A DNA stretch of 29,165 bases from a virus (taxonomy: Duplodnaviria; Heunggongvirae; Uroviricota; Caudoviricetes), in IMG/VR virus record IMGVR_UViG_2563366903_000025, positions 1-29,165 of that record; one strand, written 5' to 3'. Under the pieces are notes generated by a model. The model saw only the letters and a list, made by a program, of their open reading frames with translations, was not told where the DNA came from and made no database searches. The translations under genes were made by a program, and so were the position numbers. Below are positions 3,331-21,492 of the stretch, one piece after another (positions within the stretch are counted from its first letter, which is position 1; every line of letters starts with the position of its first letter).

Positions 3331-3696
3331 TCACAGTCCGATGATATCGTCTGCCCTGCCACGACCTCCGGACACCTCCGGCAGCGTCGGGTCCGGCATA
3401 CCACCCGCCGCTTCACGAGCAGACTTTTGTCGATGGCATTCGGTACAGAGCGTCCAGAGATTCGTCTCCTCATTACCACCACCGAACTGAAGTGCAATTC
3501 GGTGATCAAGTTCACTGTCACAGAGGTCAACCACACGACCACAGATACAGCACTGCCCGGCGTCCCTGAGCCAGATATGACGCTTGAGGGAAACACGTGC
3601 ACTGCCACTGACACGACGCTGTTCCCCCTTCAGAATATTCACCCGTCGGGTATTCAGTGTTTTGATTCTGCTCTGGAGTGTACGAAGCTCAGCCAT
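3331..3696 (-). CDS. HNH endonuclease (packaging-associated)
   Basis: 121 aa with CxxC...H-N-H motif (CCICGRVVDLCDSELDHRIALQFGGGNEETNLWTLCTECHRQK), directly upstream of the terminase genes as is common in HK97/P27-like packaging modules. Confidence 0.85.
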   Translation of the reverse strand: MAELRTLQSRIKTLNTRRVNILKGEQRRVSGSARVSLKRHIWLRDAGQCCICGRVVDLCDSELDHRIALQFGGGNEETNLWTLCTECHRQKSAREAAGGMPDPTLPEVSGGRGRADDIIGL

Positions 3697-3737
3697 GTAA
3701 AATCCCCGTCATATGACAATCAGTAAAGGAAATAAAT

Positions 3738-3938
3738 ATGTCATCGAAAAACCGGACCCGCAGAACCACAACCCGCAATATCCGTTTCCCCAATCACATA
3801 ATTGAACAGATCAACATCGCCCTTGAGCATAAAGGATCCGGTAACTTTTCAGCGTGGGTTATTGAAGCCTGCAGGAGAAGGCTGGCAACAGATGCAACGC
3901 ATCTGCGCCCGGCCAGCATGACAAATAACGAGAAATGA
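3738..3938 (+). CDS. Small putative ribbon-helix-helix-like DNA-binding protein (opposite strand to the late operon)
   Basis: 66 aa ORF with an AAGGA RBS 7 nt upstream of the ATG. The segment NIRFPNHIIEQINIALEHKGSGNFSAWVIEACRRRL resembles a strand-helix-helix fold. Family not verified. Confidence 0.4.
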   Translation: MSSKNRTRRTTTRNIRFPNHIIEQINIALEHKGSGNFSAWVIEACRRRLATDATHLRPASMTNNEK

Positions 3939-4128
3939 ACGTTCGGTTTCTTCCACCATCGCACCGGACAGGCGACTATGAGGGGACAACGCCGCGCTCC
4001 GTTAACGCGGTAAACCCCGGTGTGCATCGTTTTTGATTATCCCCGCACACTCGCGCAGAGGAGTCTCCCTGTCGGGCTGCGGTCTCTGTTAATGCAGGAA
4101 TACGGCGACGATACGGCGCATGGCTATG

Positions 4129-4677
4129 TCAGGCTGAAATGCCTTTATCAAATCCGGGTAACGCAATCTGCCCCTGCTGCTCCAGCCTGTCCAGCCTTGC
4201 CAGCAACTGAGGCTTCTTCACCCTGCCCCAGCGATTGAGCAAACGACCTGACATACTGGCAACATCTTTCTCTTTCATGTACTCCAGCATTACAGCGTTG
4301 CGTTCAGCTTCATAACTTTCACTGAACTTACGGAGTTCAGCGGACATCCAGTTAAAGGCATTAATATAGGCTTCTTTAACAGCATCAGCTTTTGCCCCGT
4401 TAAATCCCATAACCAGCATAACGAAGCCGCTAAAGTCCATGCGGTAGTAAATCTGCTTCTTGTCGAAAATCCCTAACTCATTGATTTTTTCGGCAACGCA
4501 AAAATGCGCTCTCCGGAAATCTTCAGAGCAATGGCAATTTTTCAGCGCCCTCAATACGTCCGCATGACGCTTACCAAACGCCTTAGCGATCTGAAAAGAG
4601 TCTGTTATTGGTTCGCCATCTGCCGCTGTTACCAGTTGGCGAAAATCAATACCGTCAACAATCGTCGGATAGTTCAT
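4129..4677 (-). CDS. rha: Rha-family phage regulatory protein
   Basis: 182 aa. N-terminus contains the Rha hallmark (QIAKAFGKRHADVLRAL). Confidence 0.75.
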   Translation of the reverse strand: MNYPTIVDGIDFRQLVTAADGEPITDSFQIAKAFGKRHADVLRALKNCHCSEDFRRAHFCVAEKINELGIFDKKQIYYRMDFSGFVMLVMGFNGAKADAVKEAYINAFNWMSAELRKFSESYEAERNAVMLEYMKEKDVASMSGRLLNRWGRVKKPQLLARLDRLEQQGQIALPGFDKGISA

Positions 4678-4853: not shown

Positions 4854-5321
4854 TTAATTCAGGCACTGAGTGCGGATATAGTCCTGTGCCCCTTCCAGCT
4901 GCTTCTGCATCAGCATCAACCGCTCTCTGAGGGTGAAATAATCCCGTTCAGCGGTGTCTGCCAGTCGGGGGCCGGTTGCATTATCCACGCCGGAGGTGCC
5001 GGTGGCTTCACGCACGGTACCGGAGCAGGTGGCGTTGATCCGCAGGCGCTTACGACCAGCGGCAACATCAGCACGCAGAGTTTCATTTTCAGCTCTCGCA
5101 TCAGCTAATTCCCTCGAGTATTTTGCATCGAGCGCAGCAACATCACGCTGGCGCACCTGCATGTCAGTAATGGTTGCGTTTGCCAGCTCCAGCTCTCTGG
5201 CTTTTTTATCGCGCTGCGCTTTGTAGGTGATGGCGTTATCGCGGTAATGGTTTGCTGCCAGCCACAGCGCACCGCAGCCAACCGCCAGGACAATAATCAC
5301 CACACACAGAACACGGTTCAT
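4854..5321 (-). CDS. Rz: Rz i-spanin
   Basis: 155 aa with N-terminal TM segment and coiled-coil body ([20 protein letters not shown]...[15 protein letters not shown]), closely resembling phage 21/lambda Rz as I recall it. Start overlaps the methyltransferase stop (ATGA). Confidence 0.88.
4916..5086 (-). CDS. Rz1: Rz1 o-spanin lipoprotein (embedded in Rz in the +1 frame)
   Basis: From ATG 5086: [17 protein letters not shown]..., a signal peptide with lipobox (VSAC) followed by a proline-rich body. Embedded position within Rz is diagnostic. Confidence 0.8.
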
Positions 5322-6262
5322 ATCACTACCATTTCACTGTTTTCTTTTTTCAGGCGTTTTTTTGCAACAGCGAAATACCGGTCATCCTTTTCTATTCCGG
5401 TAAACCATCTCCCCGTCCGGATACACGCAACACCTGTTGAACCACTCCCCATAGTAAAATCCAGGACCATATCGCCGGGGTTACTGTACGTCTGAATCAG
5501 CTCTTCCAGTAAGGGCACCGGCTTCTGAGTGGGGTGAAAACGCACTTTTTCCCGTGAGTACTCCAGCACATTTGAACGGTATTTTCTCCCGGCGGGGAGA
5601 TTAAACACCTTTTGACCGTAGGCATGATTAAGCTGACACATCGCTTCATATGTCATGAACCCCGGCATCCGGTCGATGCCAAAGCGTTCGATTAATTCGT
5701 TGTACGTTGCCCGTGAGCAGAGGGAAAACTGCGTGGTGTTAACCCTGAAAAAGTGCTCAGCCCGACAGTGTCCAAGCACCTTGTTAACCTCCTTGCCTGA
5801 CCGGTAACCGGTGAAGGAAAGAATGCTTCTGACGTATTCCCTCAGCGGGTGCTTTTTCTCACTATCATATTTTTTGCTGAACACAACAATGTCCTCGAAC
5901 AGCGATACCGGCGCCTTTGGGGCTACCAGCGGATTGGCAAAATGATTTTTTTTCCACACCATGCGATACGAAAACGGCAGATTGTTCAGCGCCTGAGTAA
6001 TCATCGTGCTGGTGTACGGCTCCTGACCGAACAGAATCAGTGTCCCGTTTACCCTCAGCAGACGCTCACACTGTAAGAATATCTCCACCGGGGGTAATGC
6101 TTCATCCCATGATGCTTTCCCTGAATCCCATGAAGGCAGGTTTAGCCCCTTAATGGTTCCATAGGGTGGATCAACGAGGATAAGGTCAATGCTTCCTTCC
6201 GGTAACGTTGGCATAATCTCCAGACAGTCACCATGATACAGAGAACTGTTCATCTCTTTCAC
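5318..6262 (-). CDS. DNA methyltransferase (beta-class N6-adenine or N4-cytosine; orphan, no restriction partner seen)
   Basis: 314 aa. N-terminal DPPY motif (LILVDPPYG) and C-terminal AdoMet-binding motif ([15 protein letters not shown] with upstream HPTQKP). Motif order IV...I suggests the beta class. No adjacent endonuclease-like ORF. Confidence 0.8.
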
Positions 6263-6390
6263 TCCAGCAGACCGGCCGAAGCCAACGCCATCCAGGCGAT
6301 GGAAAGAAAAAGAGCAACCAGCATGAGTGAAAATGAAACGCCGACAATCACACAGAGGACCTTTGCCGACGTTATGAGTTTGTCTGACAT
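6259..6390 (-). CDS. Small single-TM membrane peptide (43 aa)
   Basis: From ATG 6390 with an AAGGGG RBS: [43 protein letters not shown]. Stop overlaps the methyltransferase start (ATGA). Confidence 0.35.
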   Translation of the reverse strand: MSDKLITSAKVLCVIVGVSFSLMLVALFLSIAWMALASAGLLE

Positions 6391-6395
6391 CTTTA

Positions 6396-6488
6396 CCCCT
6401 TGATAGCAGTAATTAACTGGGCAACCACCCATAAAAACGGAATCAGCCAGACCAGCAAAAATTTCCAGTCCATTTTTATCATCTTCAT
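6396..6488 (-). CDS. Small hydrophobic peptide (30 aa)
   Basis: My translation from ATG 6488, which overlaps the antirepressor stop (ATGA): MKMIKMDWKFLLVWLIPFLWVVAQLITAIKG. Below the ORF-track length cutoff. Confidence 0.3.
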
Positions 6489-7180
6489 GCTGCGGTAGCT
6501 CTCCATGCAGCAAGCAGACCAGCAATCCACTCAACACCTTTTGGGGTGAATTTAACCTGCGTAAAAGCATGACCATTGCCCGCCTCGCCCGTTTTCACGC
6601 TAAACCGCCCCGCATCCAGGTGATGCGAGTAAGGCGTCATTTTTCCAGCGAGGCGATACATTATTCCGTTCTCCAACAAAAACAGCCGGAAATCGGTTTC
6701 TTTGATACCGAGTAACTTAGCAACTTCCCGGAATCCCATCAGACCAGATGCTTCAACATAGTTATCAACAAATTCGGCCTTCGGCGCTGCTATTGCCAGT
6801 TGATTTTCCAGCACTGCTTTCTGTTCAGCCAGTTTTGCCGCAAATCGCAACGCCTCAGGTAAAGTCCGGGGGATCTGAATACCATGCATCGCTTTGAGTC
6901 TTGCCAGCACAGAACGACGAACGGCCTTTGACTCCCTCATGCCAACGAGCATCATCTGGTCAAAATCCAGATCATAGTATGCCGTTCTTGTCTGGTTATT
7001 GTTTAACCGGAATTTTTTTCCGGTTCCATCAAGCTCTAGCTCATCCTCAATTTTTGCAAGAAACTTACGCGGTTCATGAGGGACTTCTCCGGCTTCTGCC
7101 CGGGCTGGATTAATAATGTTATTCAGAAAATCCAGACTACTCATGGATATTTCATGATCGACAGAAATCATCTCTTTCAT
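6485..7180 (-). CDS. Antirepressor-like protein with KilA-C-type C-terminal domain
   Basis: 231 aa. C-terminal segment LPEALRFAAKLAEQKAVLENQLAIAAPKAEFVDNYVEASG... is paralogous to the C-terminus of the 13088..13816 gene ([40 protein letters not shown]). Confidence 0.65.
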   Translation of the reverse strand: MKEMISVDHEISMSSLDFLNNIINPARAEAGEVPHEPRKFLAKIEDELELDGTGKKFRLNNNQTRTAYYDLDFDQMMLVGMRESKAVRRSVLARLKAMHGIQIPRTLPEALRFAAKLAEQKAVLENQLAIAAPKAEFVDNYVEASGLMGFREVAKLLGIKETDFRLFLLENGIMYRLAGKMTPYSHHLDAGRFSVKTGEAGNGHAFTQVKFTPKGVEWIAGLLAAWRATAA

Positions 7181-7453
7181 GGTTGATTCCTTTTAGTGAT
7201 GAACCCTGCGCACAGGAATAACCAGCCCAAAGAGGGTTAACCAGACCACTGCCGGTTATCCACCAGGGCTCATCCTGAAAGGTTCTTTGGTTTATTTACG
7301 CTTGTGCGAAGCGCAGAAATGACAAAGGCACCATTACGGTGCCTCTGCGTGAAATAATGTTCCTGACTTTATTCACTTACATTTTGCCAGCTCGCAGGAT
7401 TTCGTGTTATCCGCCCGCGTTGGCCAACGTCATTTTTCAGCAAAATATTCTGC

Positions 7454-7987
7454 TTATCTGTCGATTCCCCAGCACGCCAGCGCGCTCTCCTGGTCTCGCC
7501 GGGATACCTGACCGTAACAGTTATTTGAGCGAATACGGCAGTCCCTGCCACCGTCCTTAATCCACCAGCGAATCGCCTCACATGCTCCCCTGCGATCACC
7601 AGCATTAATTCGTTTATAAAACGTCGACGGGAAACACTTACCGGGGCCAATGTTGTACGGACAGAATGACGCGATCCCCGCTTTCTGGGGTTCGGTCAGT
7701 GGCACCCGGATGTTTTTCTCCACCCATGCCAGCGCCTTATCACGCTCAATGGCATTAACCCGGTCGCATTTTTCCTTCGACAGCTTCATGCCAGGAATAA
7801 CAGGCTTACCATCCACCCGGGTGGCTCCACGGCAGATGGTCCAGATACCCGCACCATCACGGTATGCTGTGGTGTGGTTGCCTTCTTTTTCATCCAGAAA
7901 CTGGTCGAGAATGTCAGGCGCAGAAGCGCCAGCGGCAATCAGCGCCAGAACGGCAGCCGATAAACCATAGCGGAGTTTTCTGCTCAC
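7454..7987 (-). CDS. R: SAR endolysin (phage 21 R-like lysozyme)
   Basis: 177 aa with an N-terminal signal-anchor-release-like hydrophobic segment (LSAAVLALIAAGASAP), followed by a lysozyme-like body. Sits immediately downstream of the holin. Confidence 0.85.
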   Translation of the reverse strand: MSRKLRYGLSAAVLALIAAGASAPDILDQFLDEKEGNHTTAYRDGAGIWTICRGATRVDGKPVIPGMKLSKEKCDRVNAIERDKALAWVEKNIRVPLTEPQKAGIASFCPYNIGPGKCFPSTFYKRINAGDRRGACEAIRWWIKDGGRDCRIRSNNCYGQVSRRDQESALACWGIDR

Positions 7988-7991
7988 CAGT

Positions 7992-8207
7992 TCATTCTCC
8001 CCGCGCCGCCTTACGCCGGTCCTCTCTGATTTTGAAATACAGGTTAGTCAGATATGTCAGCAGCCCAAACAGCAGACTCCCCAGCACGCCTATTGCCGCC
8101 CACTGAGACGGGGAAACCCTGTCCAGCAACTGCAGGAACCAGTAGCCCGTTCCCACCGCTGACGTGGTGTATGACACACCTGTTGTGATTTTTTCCATCT
8201 GGTACAT
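7992..8207 (-). CDS. S: Holin (S21-type pinholin with dual-start motif)
   Basis: 71 aa: [10 protein letters not shown]...[51 protein letters not shown]. Two TM segments and a basic C-terminus, near-identical in pattern to phage 21 S as I recall it. Met1 and Met4 are candidate antiholin and holin starts. Confidence 0.85.
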
Positions 8208-8282
8208 ACCCCGTCTCCCGTACTCGGAAGCTCACAACAACAAAAGGGCCACCAGCTCTTTACTGATGACCCTGACTCACCG

Positions 8283-8573
8283 TTACAGCATTGTGCCCGA
8301 TTCTGGCTGTGTGTCTGTCATATCCGTCACCGGTGGCTCCGGCTGAATATCACCATTTTCCGTGGTGACATCTTCCGCCTGTGGTTCCGGAAGCAGTTCC
8401 GGGGATGGTTCCGGCTGTGCACCAAGCAATTCATCCAGAATTGAATCCACTTCTGCATCAAGACGCGCCTCAAGGTTCTGCCGAAGTTGCTGTTTCAGTG
8501 CGCTCCGGACTTCTTCAGAGCGCAGGACTTCCTTCACTGCCTCAGCAGTGACCAGCGATTTTATTTCTGACAT
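8283..8573 (-). CDS. Hypothetical acidic protein (96 aa)
   Basis: From ATG 8573: MSEIKSLVTAEAVKEVLRSEEVRSALKQQL..., very acidic and Pro/Glu-rich C-terminus. In the late operon between nanS-like and S. No recognised family. Confidence 0.4.
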   Translation of the reverse strand: MSEIKSLVTAEAVKEVLRSEEVRSALKQQLRQNLEARLDAEVDSILDELLGAQPEPSPELLPEPQAEDVTTENGDIQPEPPVTDMTDTQPESGTML

Positions 8574-8598
8574 AGGATTTTCTCGTTGAAAGGGGTTA

Positions 8599-8793
8599 TT
8601 AAGAAGGTTGTTCCGGAATGAGTGGGGCTTCTGTTTTTGCTCCGGCTGACTGACTGGCGCTGATTTTCTCTGCGGCCCTTTTATCAATCTGCCTGCGCCA
8701 GAAATCGCGCACTGCCCTGTACCCACCCGAAAGAAGATACAGCACACAGACCGCCGTACAGAAGTACAGCATCACCTGATGAACAAATGTCAT
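8599..8793 (-). CDS. Hypothetical small membrane protein (64 aa)
   Basis: One N-terminal hydrophobic segment (VMLYFCTAVCVLYLLSGGY) followed by a basic tail. Confidence 0.4.
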   Translation of the reverse strand: MTFVHQVMLYFCTAVCVLYLLSGGYRAVRDFWRRQIDKRAAEKISASQSAGAKTEAPLIPEQPS

Positions 8794-8890
8794 AGTTTCT
8801 TACCGTTATGGTTGACAATGAGAACTGTTTTCATTTAAAAAACCGATATACGAAAGCATCTTTTCTTTACATTCTCCATTGGGATTACCT

Positions 8891-11469: not shown

Positions 11470-11496
11470 CCGCCCATTTACCACAAATAAAAAAGC
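11470..11496 (-). terminator. Intrinsic terminator after the 65-aa gene
   Basis: Minus RNA: GCCUUC-cgcagu-GAAGGC followed by UUUUUUAUUU. Confidence 0.5.
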
Positions 11497-11498
11497 CT

Positions 11499-11696
11499 TC
11501 ACTGCGGAAGGCGTCTGTAACAACCGAACTGATAGTCTGCCAGACCCGCCATAACCAGCTGGGTCAGTATTAACTGGCAGCGTTCGCGTGAAAGGTAAGT
11601 ATTCTGCGCAATCTCCCCGACTGTCGCCGGTTCGGTGGCACTTAATTCATTAAACACCACTCTGGCGGTTTCTGTCATATCCTGCTGTTTTAGCAT
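11499..11696 (-). CDS. Hypothetical small protein (65 aa from ATG 11696)
   Basis: MLKQQDMTETARVVFNELSATEPATVGEIAQNTYLSRERCQLILTQLVMAGLADYQFGCYRRLPQ, a possible small winged-helix-like protein. First gene after tR' in the late transcript. Confidence 0.4.
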   Translation of the reverse strand: MLKQQDMTETARVVFNELSATEPATVGEIAQNTYLSRERCQLILTQLVMAGLADYQFGCYRRLPQ

Positions 11697-11900: not shown

Positions 11901-12293
11901 CTAATCATTTTTTACTTTTTTGGGCAGCCAGTCGTCCATCTCCAGCCTTACACCCAGCATCGACAGACATCCGTCAATAAATCCTTCAGCAATCTGCATC
12001 TCAATTCGTATTGCCTTTTCGCTCTTCTTTCTTGTTCTGGCAATCTGCCTTTTTGATATGCGCAGCAGATAATGAGCTACCAGCAGCGAATACTCGTCCG
12101 GTTTTTTCTTCTTCAGGCGCGTAAGGCAGTTTTCGATGATAAGGCCGTCATCATCGCTGCAGGCCGGGCGAGGTTTAGCGGTGGATGGTAAAAGGCCTTT
12201 AAATCCAGCAGCTATCGGAGAATAGTCCACCCCGGTGTTACCACTTGCCGCCCATGCCCCCCAGCGTTCAAGAACCTGCTGAATATCACGCAT
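11901..12293 (-). CDS. Q: Late antiterminator Q (933W/21-type Q family)
   Basis: From ATG 12293: [35 protein letters not shown]...LKKKKPDEYSLLVAHYL...RLEMD, matching the Q933W-type pattern as recalled. Overlaps the ninH 3' end. Confidence 0.8.
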   Translation of the reverse strand: MRDIQQVLERWGAWAASGNTGVDYSPIAAGFKGLLPSTAKPRPACSDDDGLIIENCLTRLKKKKPDEYSLLVAHYLLRISKRQIARTRKKSEKAIRIEMQIAEGFIDGCLSMLGVRLEMDDWLPKKVKND

Positions 12294-12486
12294 CAGAGTC
12301 TTTACCCTTATCCCATCCACGATGGACCATAAGGACACCGTTGACGACGGCGTGCCGTTTGCCTTCTTTATCGCCAATATATTTTCTGACCGTGTTGCGA
12401 CTACAGTTCAGTATTCTGGCTACCTCGGTCTGATTTTCATATGCCTCAACGAGCATGTCAGGAATGGTTTTTACTGTGAACGTCAT
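12286..12486 (-). CDS. ninH: NinH
   Basis: 66 aa [58 protein letters not shown], near-identical to lambda NinH as recalled. Confidence 0.85.
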
Positions 12487-20150: not shown

Positions 20151-20438
20151 ATGAAGGTCTTAAACGTAGAGAGGCTTCACAGTTTTAGCCGGAAGCACAA
20201 TCAGGCCAAGGGGGCTTTAGACTCTTGGTATGATGAAGTGATAAGAGAAAACTGGAAAACGACTCAAGACATACGGAATAGATTTAATTCTGCCGACTTC
20301 CTTCCTAACAACAGGGTAATTTTTAATATAAAAGGCAATAACTATCGGCTCGTTGTCCAAGTTGTTTACCAGGCAGGAATGGTCATAGTTGAAAGAGTTG
20401 GAACTCATGCAGAGTACGACAAGTGGAGGCTTAAATGA
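20151..20438 (+). CDS. higB: HigB-family toxin (RelE/ParE superfamily)
   Basis: 95 aa. C-terminal ...GNNYRLVVQVVYQAGMVIVERVGTHAEYDKW parallels E. coli HigB ...NELRVVAMVFFESQKCYIREVMTHKEYD as recalled. Toxin-first order typical of hig loci. Stop overlaps the next start (ATGA). Confidence 0.75.
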   Translation: MKVLNVERLHSFSRKHNQAKGALDSWYDEVIRENWKTTQDIRNRFNSADFLPNNRVIFNIKGNNYRLVVQVVYQAGMVIVERVGTHAEYDKWRLK

Positions 20439-21091
20439 ATCGAACTAGCTGGCGCATCATTAAAAATAGTGAAGAGCATGCTGCAGCTATGGAAAGGCTC
20501 ATTGAACTTGCGTCTAGTGATTTACAACCTGGAACTGAAGATTTTGATGAGTTTGAACTACTAGGCTTGCTTATCGAGCACTATGAGTCACGCGAGTTCC
20601 CTATGGACAAGCCAGATCCCATAGAAGCAATCAAGTTCCGTATGGATCAACAAGGCCTCTCTTATGCCGATATGAAACAATACATTGGCTCAGCATCTAA
20701 AGTATCTGAGGTCTTAAATCGTAAGCGTCCATTAAGTCTTTCAATGATCCGTAGACTACATGACGGACTTGGAATTCCTGCAGATATCTTAATTCAAGAT
20801 ATGAGCGCAATTGAATGGAGCCTAGTTGACGCAGAGGAAGAAGAAACAGCCATGACTAGCGTCATTGCTCGGTGTGAGTCAGCCGTCACATCACCTTCTG
20901 CTTATTTCGCTGAAAAGGCTACAGAATCTTACTTTTCAAAAATGTTGTTCAGCGCAGTAAGGGGTAATGGCAAATGCAAAGAAAAACGGAATGTTTTTTC
21001 TTTGATAAGTAACTTGTCATCAAGTTTCACAGCGGCTAGCAACCTGAATGACGAAATGACTTCTGACGGAAATTACTTATTATTACCATGA
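20435..21091 (+). CDS. higA: HigA-family HTH antitoxin with about 95-aa C-terminal extension
   Basis: 218 aa. Residues up to about 125 match the HigA pattern (PDPIEAIKFRMDQQGLSYADMKQYIGSASKVSEVLNRKRPLSLSMIRRLHDGLGIPADILI). Canonical HigA ends there; this protein continues with an acidic, Ser-rich tail. Confidence 0.75.
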   Translation: MNRTSWRIIKNSEEHAAAMERLIELASSDLQPGTEDFDEFELLGLLIEHYESREFPMDKPDPIEAIKFRMDQQGLSYADMKQYIGSASKVSEVLNRKRPLSLSMIRRLHDGLGIPADILIQDMSAIEWSLVDAEEEETAMTSVIARCESAVTSPSAYFAEKATESYFSKMLFSAVRGNGKCKEKRNVFSLISNLSSSFTAASNLNDEMTSDGNYLLLP

Positions 21092-21492
21092 AAATTGAAC
21101 TCATTAGCAAAAAAGTTGAACGCTTGGTTATGACACGGCTAGAAGGCGATTCAACAGCAAAAAAAGCCATAAAAACAACCGTTAATCTAAATAATGAACT
21201 TTACACTAATGTGAAGGATTCAAAGCTATTTAGAGTGAGATATTTTGCCTCCGTAACTATTGAAGGCAGGCTTGAGATGGACATCACATACGACTTTGAC
21301 TTCCGGTCAGAAGATGATTTTTCTCATGAAATGGCAAAATCATATGAGGTAAGGTCCATTGCTCCCAATATGGCATATCCCTATATAAAAACATATGCCG
21401 AGCAAATTATCCTCATGTCAAACCTTGGTAGGTTCACTCTGCCTTATTTTGATTTCTTGGCCAATCCCATGGAAACGAACAGTAATAAGTGA
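21088..21492 (+). CDS. SecB-like chaperone candidate (third gene of the cassette)
   Basis: 134 aa, translationally coupled (ATGA). Segments FRVRYFASVTIEG and APNMAYPYIKTYAEQIILMSNLGRF resemble E. coli SecB ([34 protein letters not shown]) as recalled from memory. Confidence 0.55.
   Translation: MKIELISKKVERLVMTRLEGDSTAKKAIKTTVNLNNELYTNVKDSKLFRVRYFASVTIEGRLEMDITYDFDFRSEDDFSHEMAKSYEVRSIAPNMAYPYIKTYAEQIILMSNLGRFTLPYFDFLANPMETNSNK

Follow-up and report, generated by a model that had tools for sequence, protein, structure and literature searches.

What is a solitary DNA methyltransferase gene doing inside a phage lysis cassette? The question is raised by IMG/VR virus record IMGVR_UViG_2563366903_000025 (Caudoviricetes), whose positions 1 to 29,165, the 29,165-nucleotide (nt) stretch that we call the window, hold such a gene between those for lysozyme and the spanin Rz. 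A reading of the DNA letters, the original prediction, had proposed an orphan β-class methyltransferase (MTase) and candidate anti-restriction factor, which would protect progeny DNA from host restriction systems or modulate gene expression. Our analysis makes it probable, with moderate confidence, that the gene encodes a functional solitary β-class MTase dependent on S-adenosylmethionine (AdoMet), that it is expressed in the Q-dependent late transcript, and that it methylates phage DNA so that progeny are protected in advance against restriction. The placement of the gene in the late/lysis operon, the neighbors of its distant relatives, and the shuffling of its recognition domain strengthen the anti-restriction reading.

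A single uninterrupted minus-strand open reading frame (ORF) fills window positions 5318 to 6262 exactly and encodes 314 amino acids (aa) when counted from the GTG at 6262, so the predicted ORF is real. The true start, however, is probably the ATG at 6253, giving 311 aa rather than the GTG product, because a Shine-Dalgarno-like GGAG lies 8 nt upstream, homologs begin at the equivalent methionine, and RefSeq annotates the identical gene in this way. The protein is 100% identical to the annotated 311-aa WP_016238071.1 of Escherichia coli DETEC-S792. It matches PF01555 over the full model (positions 1 to 221 of 221; E value of 3.8e-30; 105.9 bits versus a threshold of 26.7), and the catalytic Rossmann-like fold is common to this enzyme and the solved β-class members. 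Residues are numbered here from the GTG, as in the 314-aa version; in that numbering, DPPY at 31 to 34 is followed by a helical domain at 131 to 218 and by FTMGSG at 269 to 274. This circularly permuted order of motif IV, target-recognition domain (TRD), and motif I, together with the full-length PF01555 match, upholds the β-class assignment. A fold search of BFVD with the protein returned only generic "DNA methylase" matches.

The catalytic DPPY had been placed near the N terminus, where it is indeed found, as the sole [DNS]PP[YFW] motif within the real genes of the window. An FxGxG motif had been placed near the C terminus; motif I is present there, but a regular-expression search found the literal FxGxG nowhere in the protein. 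The motif is instead a variant of F-x-G-x-G with MGSG invariant in the family: the G-x-G loop is intact, with threonine at the canonical phenylalanine position and phenylalanine one position earlier, and it aligns with DPFMGSGTTG of M1.HpyAVI and DPFFGVGTTG of CcrM. Mutated catalytic or AdoMet-binding residues had been named as grounds for refutation. In a 17-sequence family alignment spanning 50 to 76% identity these residues are invariant, namely, D31-P-P-Y34, H243-P-T-x-K-P248, M271-G-S-G274, T276-G277, and G289-I-E291. Moreover, Nei-Gojobori ratios of nonsynonymous to synonymous substitution (dN/dS) versus six homologs were 0.08 to 0.20, so the gene is under purifying selection.

The enzyme is also solitary. 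No restriction endonuclease was found among its neighbors by Pfam, PADLOC, and PHROG scans, in agreement with the statement that no endonuclease partner adjoins it; the neighbors are a 43-aa ORF, the Ant antirepressor, Rz/Rz1, and Rha. Within 5 kb a single gene is nuclease-like; it lies 1.6 kb away and encodes a 121-aa HNH protein. This gene was considered as a restriction partner and rejected: it adjoins TerS/TerL, a trio of HNH, Terminase_4, and TerL again comes after Rz in a related locus (L090), and its PADLOC match to a restriction enzyme is weak (1.6e-5). We take it to belong to the terminase/packaging module. The solitary state is repeated in all related enterobacterial loci. In sum, the testable parts of the original prediction are supported, and the corrections (strand, start codon, and the literal FxGxG) are minor. 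The gene is one more phage orphan MTase of an ordinary kind, in a slightly unusual but conserved position.

That position lies within the late genes of a lambdoid prophage. The plus strand of the window carries cI, N, the integrase gene, and further early-region genes, and the minus strand carries genes for O, P, NinB, NinG, Q, a NanS-p-type esterase, holin, lysozyme, Ant, the 43-aa ORF, the MTase, Rz/Rz1, Rha, HNH, TerS, and TerL (see the table below); no tRNA genes were found within the window. Lambdoid lysis genes are expressed from the late operon (PMC8022706). The MTase stop codon overlaps the Rz start codon (ATGA), and several Salmonella loci have an overlap between the end of lysozyme and the MTase start. 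Simple scans found no sigma-70-like site 5′ of the MTase gene and no minus-strand terminator-like site from the holin to the end of Rz, and the GC content of the gene is 48.7%, versus 48.8% for the window. A classic autonomous "moron" was rejected, since neither promoter-like nor terminator-like sites flank the gene and its GC content does not deviate.

Features of the methyltransferase gene and its surroundings (window positions)
Feature	Residues	Positions	Strand	Basis or remark
DNA methyltransferase coding sequence (CDS)	311 aa	5318-6253	-	Probable start ATG 6253; in-frame GTG at 6262 gives 314 aa; ORF list, PF01555, identity to WP_016238071.1
GGAG, Shine-Dalgarno-like		6262-6265	-	8 nt 5′ of ATG 6253; read from the sequence
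Motif IV, DPPY, catalytic	31-34	6161-6172	-	Aligns to DPPY of CcrM and M1.HpyAVI
Central four-helix TRD	131-218	5609-5872	-	AlphaFold2 model; hhalign; swapped between near-identical cores
HPTQKP, conserved in β-class enzymes	243-248	5519-5536	-	H, P, T, K, and P invariant in the family
Motif I, FTMGSG, AdoMet glycine loop	269-274	5441-5458	-	M, G, S, and G invariant; not a literal FxGxG
HNH gene	121 aa	3331-3696	-	Directly upstream of TerS/TerL; arrangement as in HNH-dependent packaging modules
Rz i-spanin		4854-5321	-	Pfam Phage_lysis, 1.9e-50; ATG overlaps MTase stop (ATGA)
Rz1 o-spanin, embedded in Rz		4916-5101	-	phrog_3198, Rz-like spanin, 2.2e-31
ORF directly 5′ of MTase	43 aa	6259-6390	-	phrog_4906, function not assigned; occurs also in prophages without the MTase
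Ant antirepressor (KilAC domain)		6485-7180	-	Second insert in the R-Rz interval; Pfam ANT, 5.2e-28; phrog_63
Endolysin (phage lysozyme)		7454-7987	-	Pfam Phage_lysozyme, 2e-24
Holin, P21 S type		7992-8207	-	Pfam Phage_holin_2_1, 9e-33
Terminator-like hairpin and T-run, candidate tR′		11495-11512	-	3′ of Q; pattern scan; function inferred
Q antiterminator		11901-12377	-	Presumed controller of the MTase-containing late transcript; Pfam Phage_antitermQ, 4.9e-52; gene order and strand

The order lysozyme-MTase-Rz was found in 15 of the 16 E. coli and Salmonella loci checked, which represent at least 7 protein clusters of 57 to 100% identity, and it is kept although the holins vary, Q comes from three families, and the terminases are of four types. 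Other arrangements were also observed. In Arsenophonus (L023 and L049) the order is lysozyme, Rz, MTase; the homolog, at only 36 to 46% identity, remains joined to the lysis cassette. A copy with 67% nt identity in three Shiga toxin-producing E. coli (STEC) genomes, STEC306 to STEC308 (L177, positions 3384 to 4416), is annotated as two CDSs, is apparently disrupted, and sits between the Q antiterminator and the holins, with a helix-turn-helix (HTH) protein ahead of it. In Salmonella enterica subsp. diarizonae (L008, 4155 to 5939), a 58%-identical homolog lies at the prophage end, directly after genes for tail-fiber assembly and for a Hin/Gin-type invertase and beside a host glycosyl hydrolase gene, the place that com-mom occupies in phage Mu. 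The virulent-type phage vB_EcoM-ep3 carries a 54%-identical homolog after its primase gene.

The family is rare in E. coli and common in Salmonella assemblies. Of 5,426 complete E. coli genomes, 12 carry a gene that covers 80% or more of the query, and 1 carries this allele. Because a megablast search of 50,697 phage records gave no match, and a tblastn search of deposited phage genomes with the window protein and a Salmonella homolog found no full-length relative above 54% identity, it appears that no characterized phage carries this MTase. More distant relatives (38 to 55% identity) are spread over many phyla. In a scan of 84 ORFs that flank distant homologs, 60 Pfam families were found. Terminases and portals lead the 25 most frequent of these, among which there are single matches to a Mom-family and to a Tad2-like (anti-defense) protein and no restriction-enzyme family.

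The insertion of the gene in the cassette was examined by comparison with prophages that lack it. Thousands of E. coli genomes hold parts of the R-to-Rz block without the MTase, and the closest matches, including two that were inspected (L095 and L096), have lysozyme, Ant, the 43-aa ORF, and Rz but no MTase. Relative to these two, homology stops at window positions 6259/6250, just past the 43-aa ORF, and restarts at 5331/5272, at or just inside Rz; the insertion is therefore essentially one ORF and is precise to that ORF. The 43-aa ORF, as upstream arm, and Rz serve as homology arms, as is typical of lambdoid mosaicism. The whole lysozyme-Ant-43-aa ORF-MTase-Rz block (4854 to 7987) was found in none of the 5,426 complete E. 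coli genomes. Its halves occur separately, with the junction inside or beside the 43-aa ORF; DETEC-S792, for instance, matches the segment from the 43-aa ORF to Rha at 99.9% identity but lacks Ant. Accessory genes, Ant among them, are known to occupy the R-Rz interval.

Between the catalytic motifs lies the central TRD, in which AlphaFold2 places helices at residues 140 to 151, 156 to 163, 184 to 194, and 205 to 216 (predicted local distance difference test scores averaging 82 to 96 per 10-residue block over residues 131 to 220). Residues ∼131 to 218 align to no solved MTase, by sequence or by fold, and the domain alone has no significant match among PDB sequences (best E value of 1.3). Sequence comparison indicates that within the lysis-cassette clade the TRD is swapped among near-identical catalytic cores: TRD identity is 36 to 39% between proteins whose cores are 87 to 88% identical, as in P0007 versus P0019, where the core is 88% identical and the TRD 39%. 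The TRD type of the window allele is shared only with the STEC variant, at 75% identity. Such shuffling is expected if the TRD sets sequence specificity under diversifying pressure and so tracks varying restriction specificities. Separately, five metagenome-derived relatives (P0028, P0029, P0037, P0067, and P0107) contain the helical recognition module twice in tandem; in the 433-aa P0028, the modules at residues 121 to 215 and 242 to 331 match the window TRD at E values of 9e-24 and 5e-25, respectively. These tandem-domain relatives may be bi-specific MTases.

Among the closest known systems is the M.EcoGII/M.EcoGI family, the prophage-encoded nonspecific β-class adenine MTases of Stx-type phages. 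An Stx-type prophage of E. coli strain 48 (L002) encodes an enzyme that is 98.6% identical to the MTase of phage 1720a-02, which Murray et al. described as very similar to the nonspecific adenine MTase M.EcoGII (PMC5778455). BLASTP aligned this M.EcoGII-like enzyme with the window MTase, recognition domain included (26% identity; E value of 2e-23), and an hhalign comparison with the window family ran through the central domain (probability of 99.8%; E value of 3.8e-28; 295 columns). The M.EcoGII model of Ochiai et al. has three parts: the Rossmann core, an HTH recognition domain of four helices, and a long linker between domains, which is charged and is tied to nonspecific binding; the site-specific M.PflMI is 27.4% identical to M.EcoGII, with the same recognition domain and no charged linker (PMC11551740). 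The predicted helices and the hhalign alignment place the four-helix HTH domain in the window MTase (the M.EcoGII domain being taken from its description). The long charged linker is missing: where the M.EcoGII-like enzyme has an extra charged segment after the TRD (48 residues, 31% charged), the window family is gapped, and the corresponding 38 residues of the window MTase are 18% charged. The absence of this segment suggests an architecture of the site-specific type, and the window MTase is predicted to be site specific. Nor is it close to M.EcoGII, since its 26 to 27% identity to the M.EcoGII-like enzyme is comparable to that of M.PflMI. The strain 48 prophage also contains a lysis-cassette MTase, which has 77% aa identity to that of the window, so that two β-class enzymes stand in one late region: the M.EcoGII-like gene, upstream of tRNA genes, and the cassette gene, at L002 positions 1 to 1058 and 7921 to 8856.

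The window MTase thus resembles M.EcoGII in its N-terminal DPPY, β-class order, prophage location, and solitary state, and silence in the lysogen, documented for M.EcoGII, is presumed here. It differs in location, between lysozyme and Rz rather than upstream of a tRNA/NanS-p region, and its specificity is probably not relaxed. With M.PflMI (CCANNNNNTGG, a site-specific β-class enzyme compared by description), which is about as distant from M.EcoGII as the window MTase is, it shares the M.EcoGII-type TRD fold and the lack of a charged linker; M.PflMI, unlike the window MTase, belongs to a restriction-modification pair. The recognition elements of the solved β-class enzymes M.BceJIV, M.MboIIA, M.RsrI, M1.HpyAVI, CcrM, and TTHA0409 are unrelated, and the 90-residue helical domain of the window aligns to none of them. 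YhdJ (M.EcoKII type, ATGCAT) and the CcrM equivalogs are likewise solitary β-class adenine MTases of enterobacteria or proteobacteria, with N- and C-terminal motifs in common. Identity with YhdJ (NF008572; NCBIfam score of 82.8 versus an equivalog cutoff of 292), CcrM (NF050803; 80.5 versus 830), and the plasmid family PRK13699 was rejected on the NCBIfam cutoffs. The proposed logic, late modification of progeny DNA to escape restriction, is that of Mu mom, P1 dam, and T4 dam, as a functional analogy only: Mom is not an MTase, and T4 and P1 Dam are α-class GATC enzymes. Links to mom are the mom-like position, after a tail-fiber invertase, of the Salmonella homolog described above and the location of one distant homolog beside a Mom-family gene. 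M.SbaUII of Salmonella Bareilly (β class, CAGCTG; PMC4393132), known by description, is active in the lysogen, which agrees poorly with a late gene.

The mechanism that we propose is as follows. The MTase gene would be silent in the lysogen. After induction, Q would antiterminate a late transcript running through holin, endolysin, Ant, the 43-aa ORF, the MTase, and Rz/Rz1 on into the packaging genes, and the MTase would be translated from its own GGAG-ATG, its stop overlapping the start of Rz. The enzyme presumably acts as a dimer, as other β-class enzymes do (PMC7544214); it would read its target with the four-helix HTH domain, flip the target adenine into the DPPY pocket, and methylate it at N6. 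Replicating phage DNA would thereby be marked shortly before packaging and lysis, and progeny genomes would be protected in the next host against a restriction enzyme of matching specificity. Host enzymes leave lambda and P22 virion DNA under-methylated (PMC8022706), which makes the need for a phage-borne late MTase plausible.

Several explanations compete with this one. The enzyme could be a relaxed or nonspecific adenine MTase of the M.EcoGII type that blankets progeny DNA with N6-methyladenine and so defeats many restriction systems, its toxicity demanding last-minute confinement. The full-length homology to the M.EcoGII-like enzyme, helical TRD included, is consistent with this idea, as are the facts that M.EcoGII is likewise prophage borne, silent in lysogens, and harmful when expressed (PMC5778455) and that related nonspecific enzymes adjoin lysis cassettes, as in Serratia phage OS31 (PMC7556043). 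We nevertheless consider it unlikely, as the identity is low, about that reported between M.EcoGII and the site-specific M.PflMI, the charged segment tied to nonspecific binding is absent, the swapping of TRDs between near-identical cores suits enzymes that read sequence rather than one that does not, and the presence of both enzyme types in the strain 48 prophage suggests nonredundant roles. We find it equally improbable that the gene is expressed in the lysogen as an epigenetic regulator, a form of lysogenic conversion in which it would alter host or prophage gene expression instead of protecting virion DNA. Orphan MTases are well-known regulators, and the R-Rz interval accommodates accessory genes; the window gene, however, has no promoter- or terminator-like signals of its own, has the GC content of its surroundings, and overlaps flanking late genes, and silence in lysogens is common among prophage MTases (PMC4393132; PMC5778455). 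The modulation of gene expression raised by the original prediction is less favored because the placement argues for late-lytic expression only.

Were the enzyme an N4-cytosine rather than an N6-adenine MTase, its protective role would be unchanged. N4-cytosine β-class enzymes typically have SPP[YF] and N6-adenine enzymes DPP[YF]. Motif IV opens with aspartate, not serine, in 17 of the 17 aligned family members, and adenine enzymes are its best matches in both sequence and structure; cytosine methylation is thus quite unlikely, and the enzyme is most probably an N6-adenine MTase. Methylation might instead assist the metabolism of phage DNA, for example by controlling replication or enabling recognition of packaging sites (compare P1 Dam at pac), given that the gene lies within ∼2.3 kb of the HNH-TerS-TerL module and that terminase and portal genes often adjoin its distant homologs. 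This role we judge very unlikely: the MTase is missing from close prophages whose lysis and packaging modules are the same, and its clade is found with at least four terminase types, so that no packaging system depends on it. Finally, the gene could be a decaying, nonfunctional passenger of a defective prophage, in keeping with its rarity in E. coli, the splitting of one E. coli variant into two CDSs, and the absence of a close homolog from deposited phage genomes. That this is a dead gene is hardly credible, however, when the ORF is intact, the catalytic motifs are all invariant, dN/dS is low, and the early, replication, antitermination, lysis, and terminase genes of the window are also intact.

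Some points do weigh against late anti-restriction methylation. The literature yielded no activity, expression, or methylome data for this MTase or a close relative, and nothing specific on an MTase inside a lysis cassette or on a methylome assignment for the family. A late promoter was not located by a simple scan, and late expression thus rests on gene order. Deposited phages contain no copy with 60% or more full-length identity, the gene is rare in E. coli, and its carriers may include defective prophages. Any net benefit would also depend on the host, as methylated DNA becomes open to methyl-dependent restriction.

Elsewhere in the window, two overlapping plus-strand genes of unknown function by PHROG (20435 to 21091 and 21088 to 21492) occupy the rexAB position between cI and N. 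PADLOC matches them to PD-Lambda-2_B (3.8e-50, over only positions 1 to 125 of the 402 in the profile) and, at full length, to PD-T4-9_C (3.2e-11), and the two may form a prophage-encoded antiphage pair.

What is new about this gene is its fixed position between endolysin and spanin in E. coli and Salmonella prophages, the kinship of its TRD to those of M.EcoGII as well as M.PflMI, and the natural TRD swaps, tandem variants included. A more speculative reading, which we regard as doubtful, is that lysozyme-MTase-Rz forms both a timing device and a portable, retargetable anti-restriction module: a harmful, possibly broad-specificity MTase would be kept locked within the lysis cassette, its translation tied to that of the spanin, and would act only in the final minutes before lysis, and the clade would swap its HTH TRD to track the restriction specificities of Enterobacteriaceae. 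The recognition sequence would be of practical value: it would add a new specificity, in a small enzyme, to the M.EcoGII/M.PflMI architecture, and chromatin and RNA labeling already makes use of this scaffold as a tool. The natural TRD swaps between near-identical cores would be material for learning how this helical domain reads DNA. The window MTase does not change the current understanding of phage biology. If its protective role is true, it would be a further case of phage premethylation crossing restriction barriers, in a prophage pool common to E. coli (including STEC) and Salmonella, and may explain the spread of some lambdoid phages between strains with different restriction systems.

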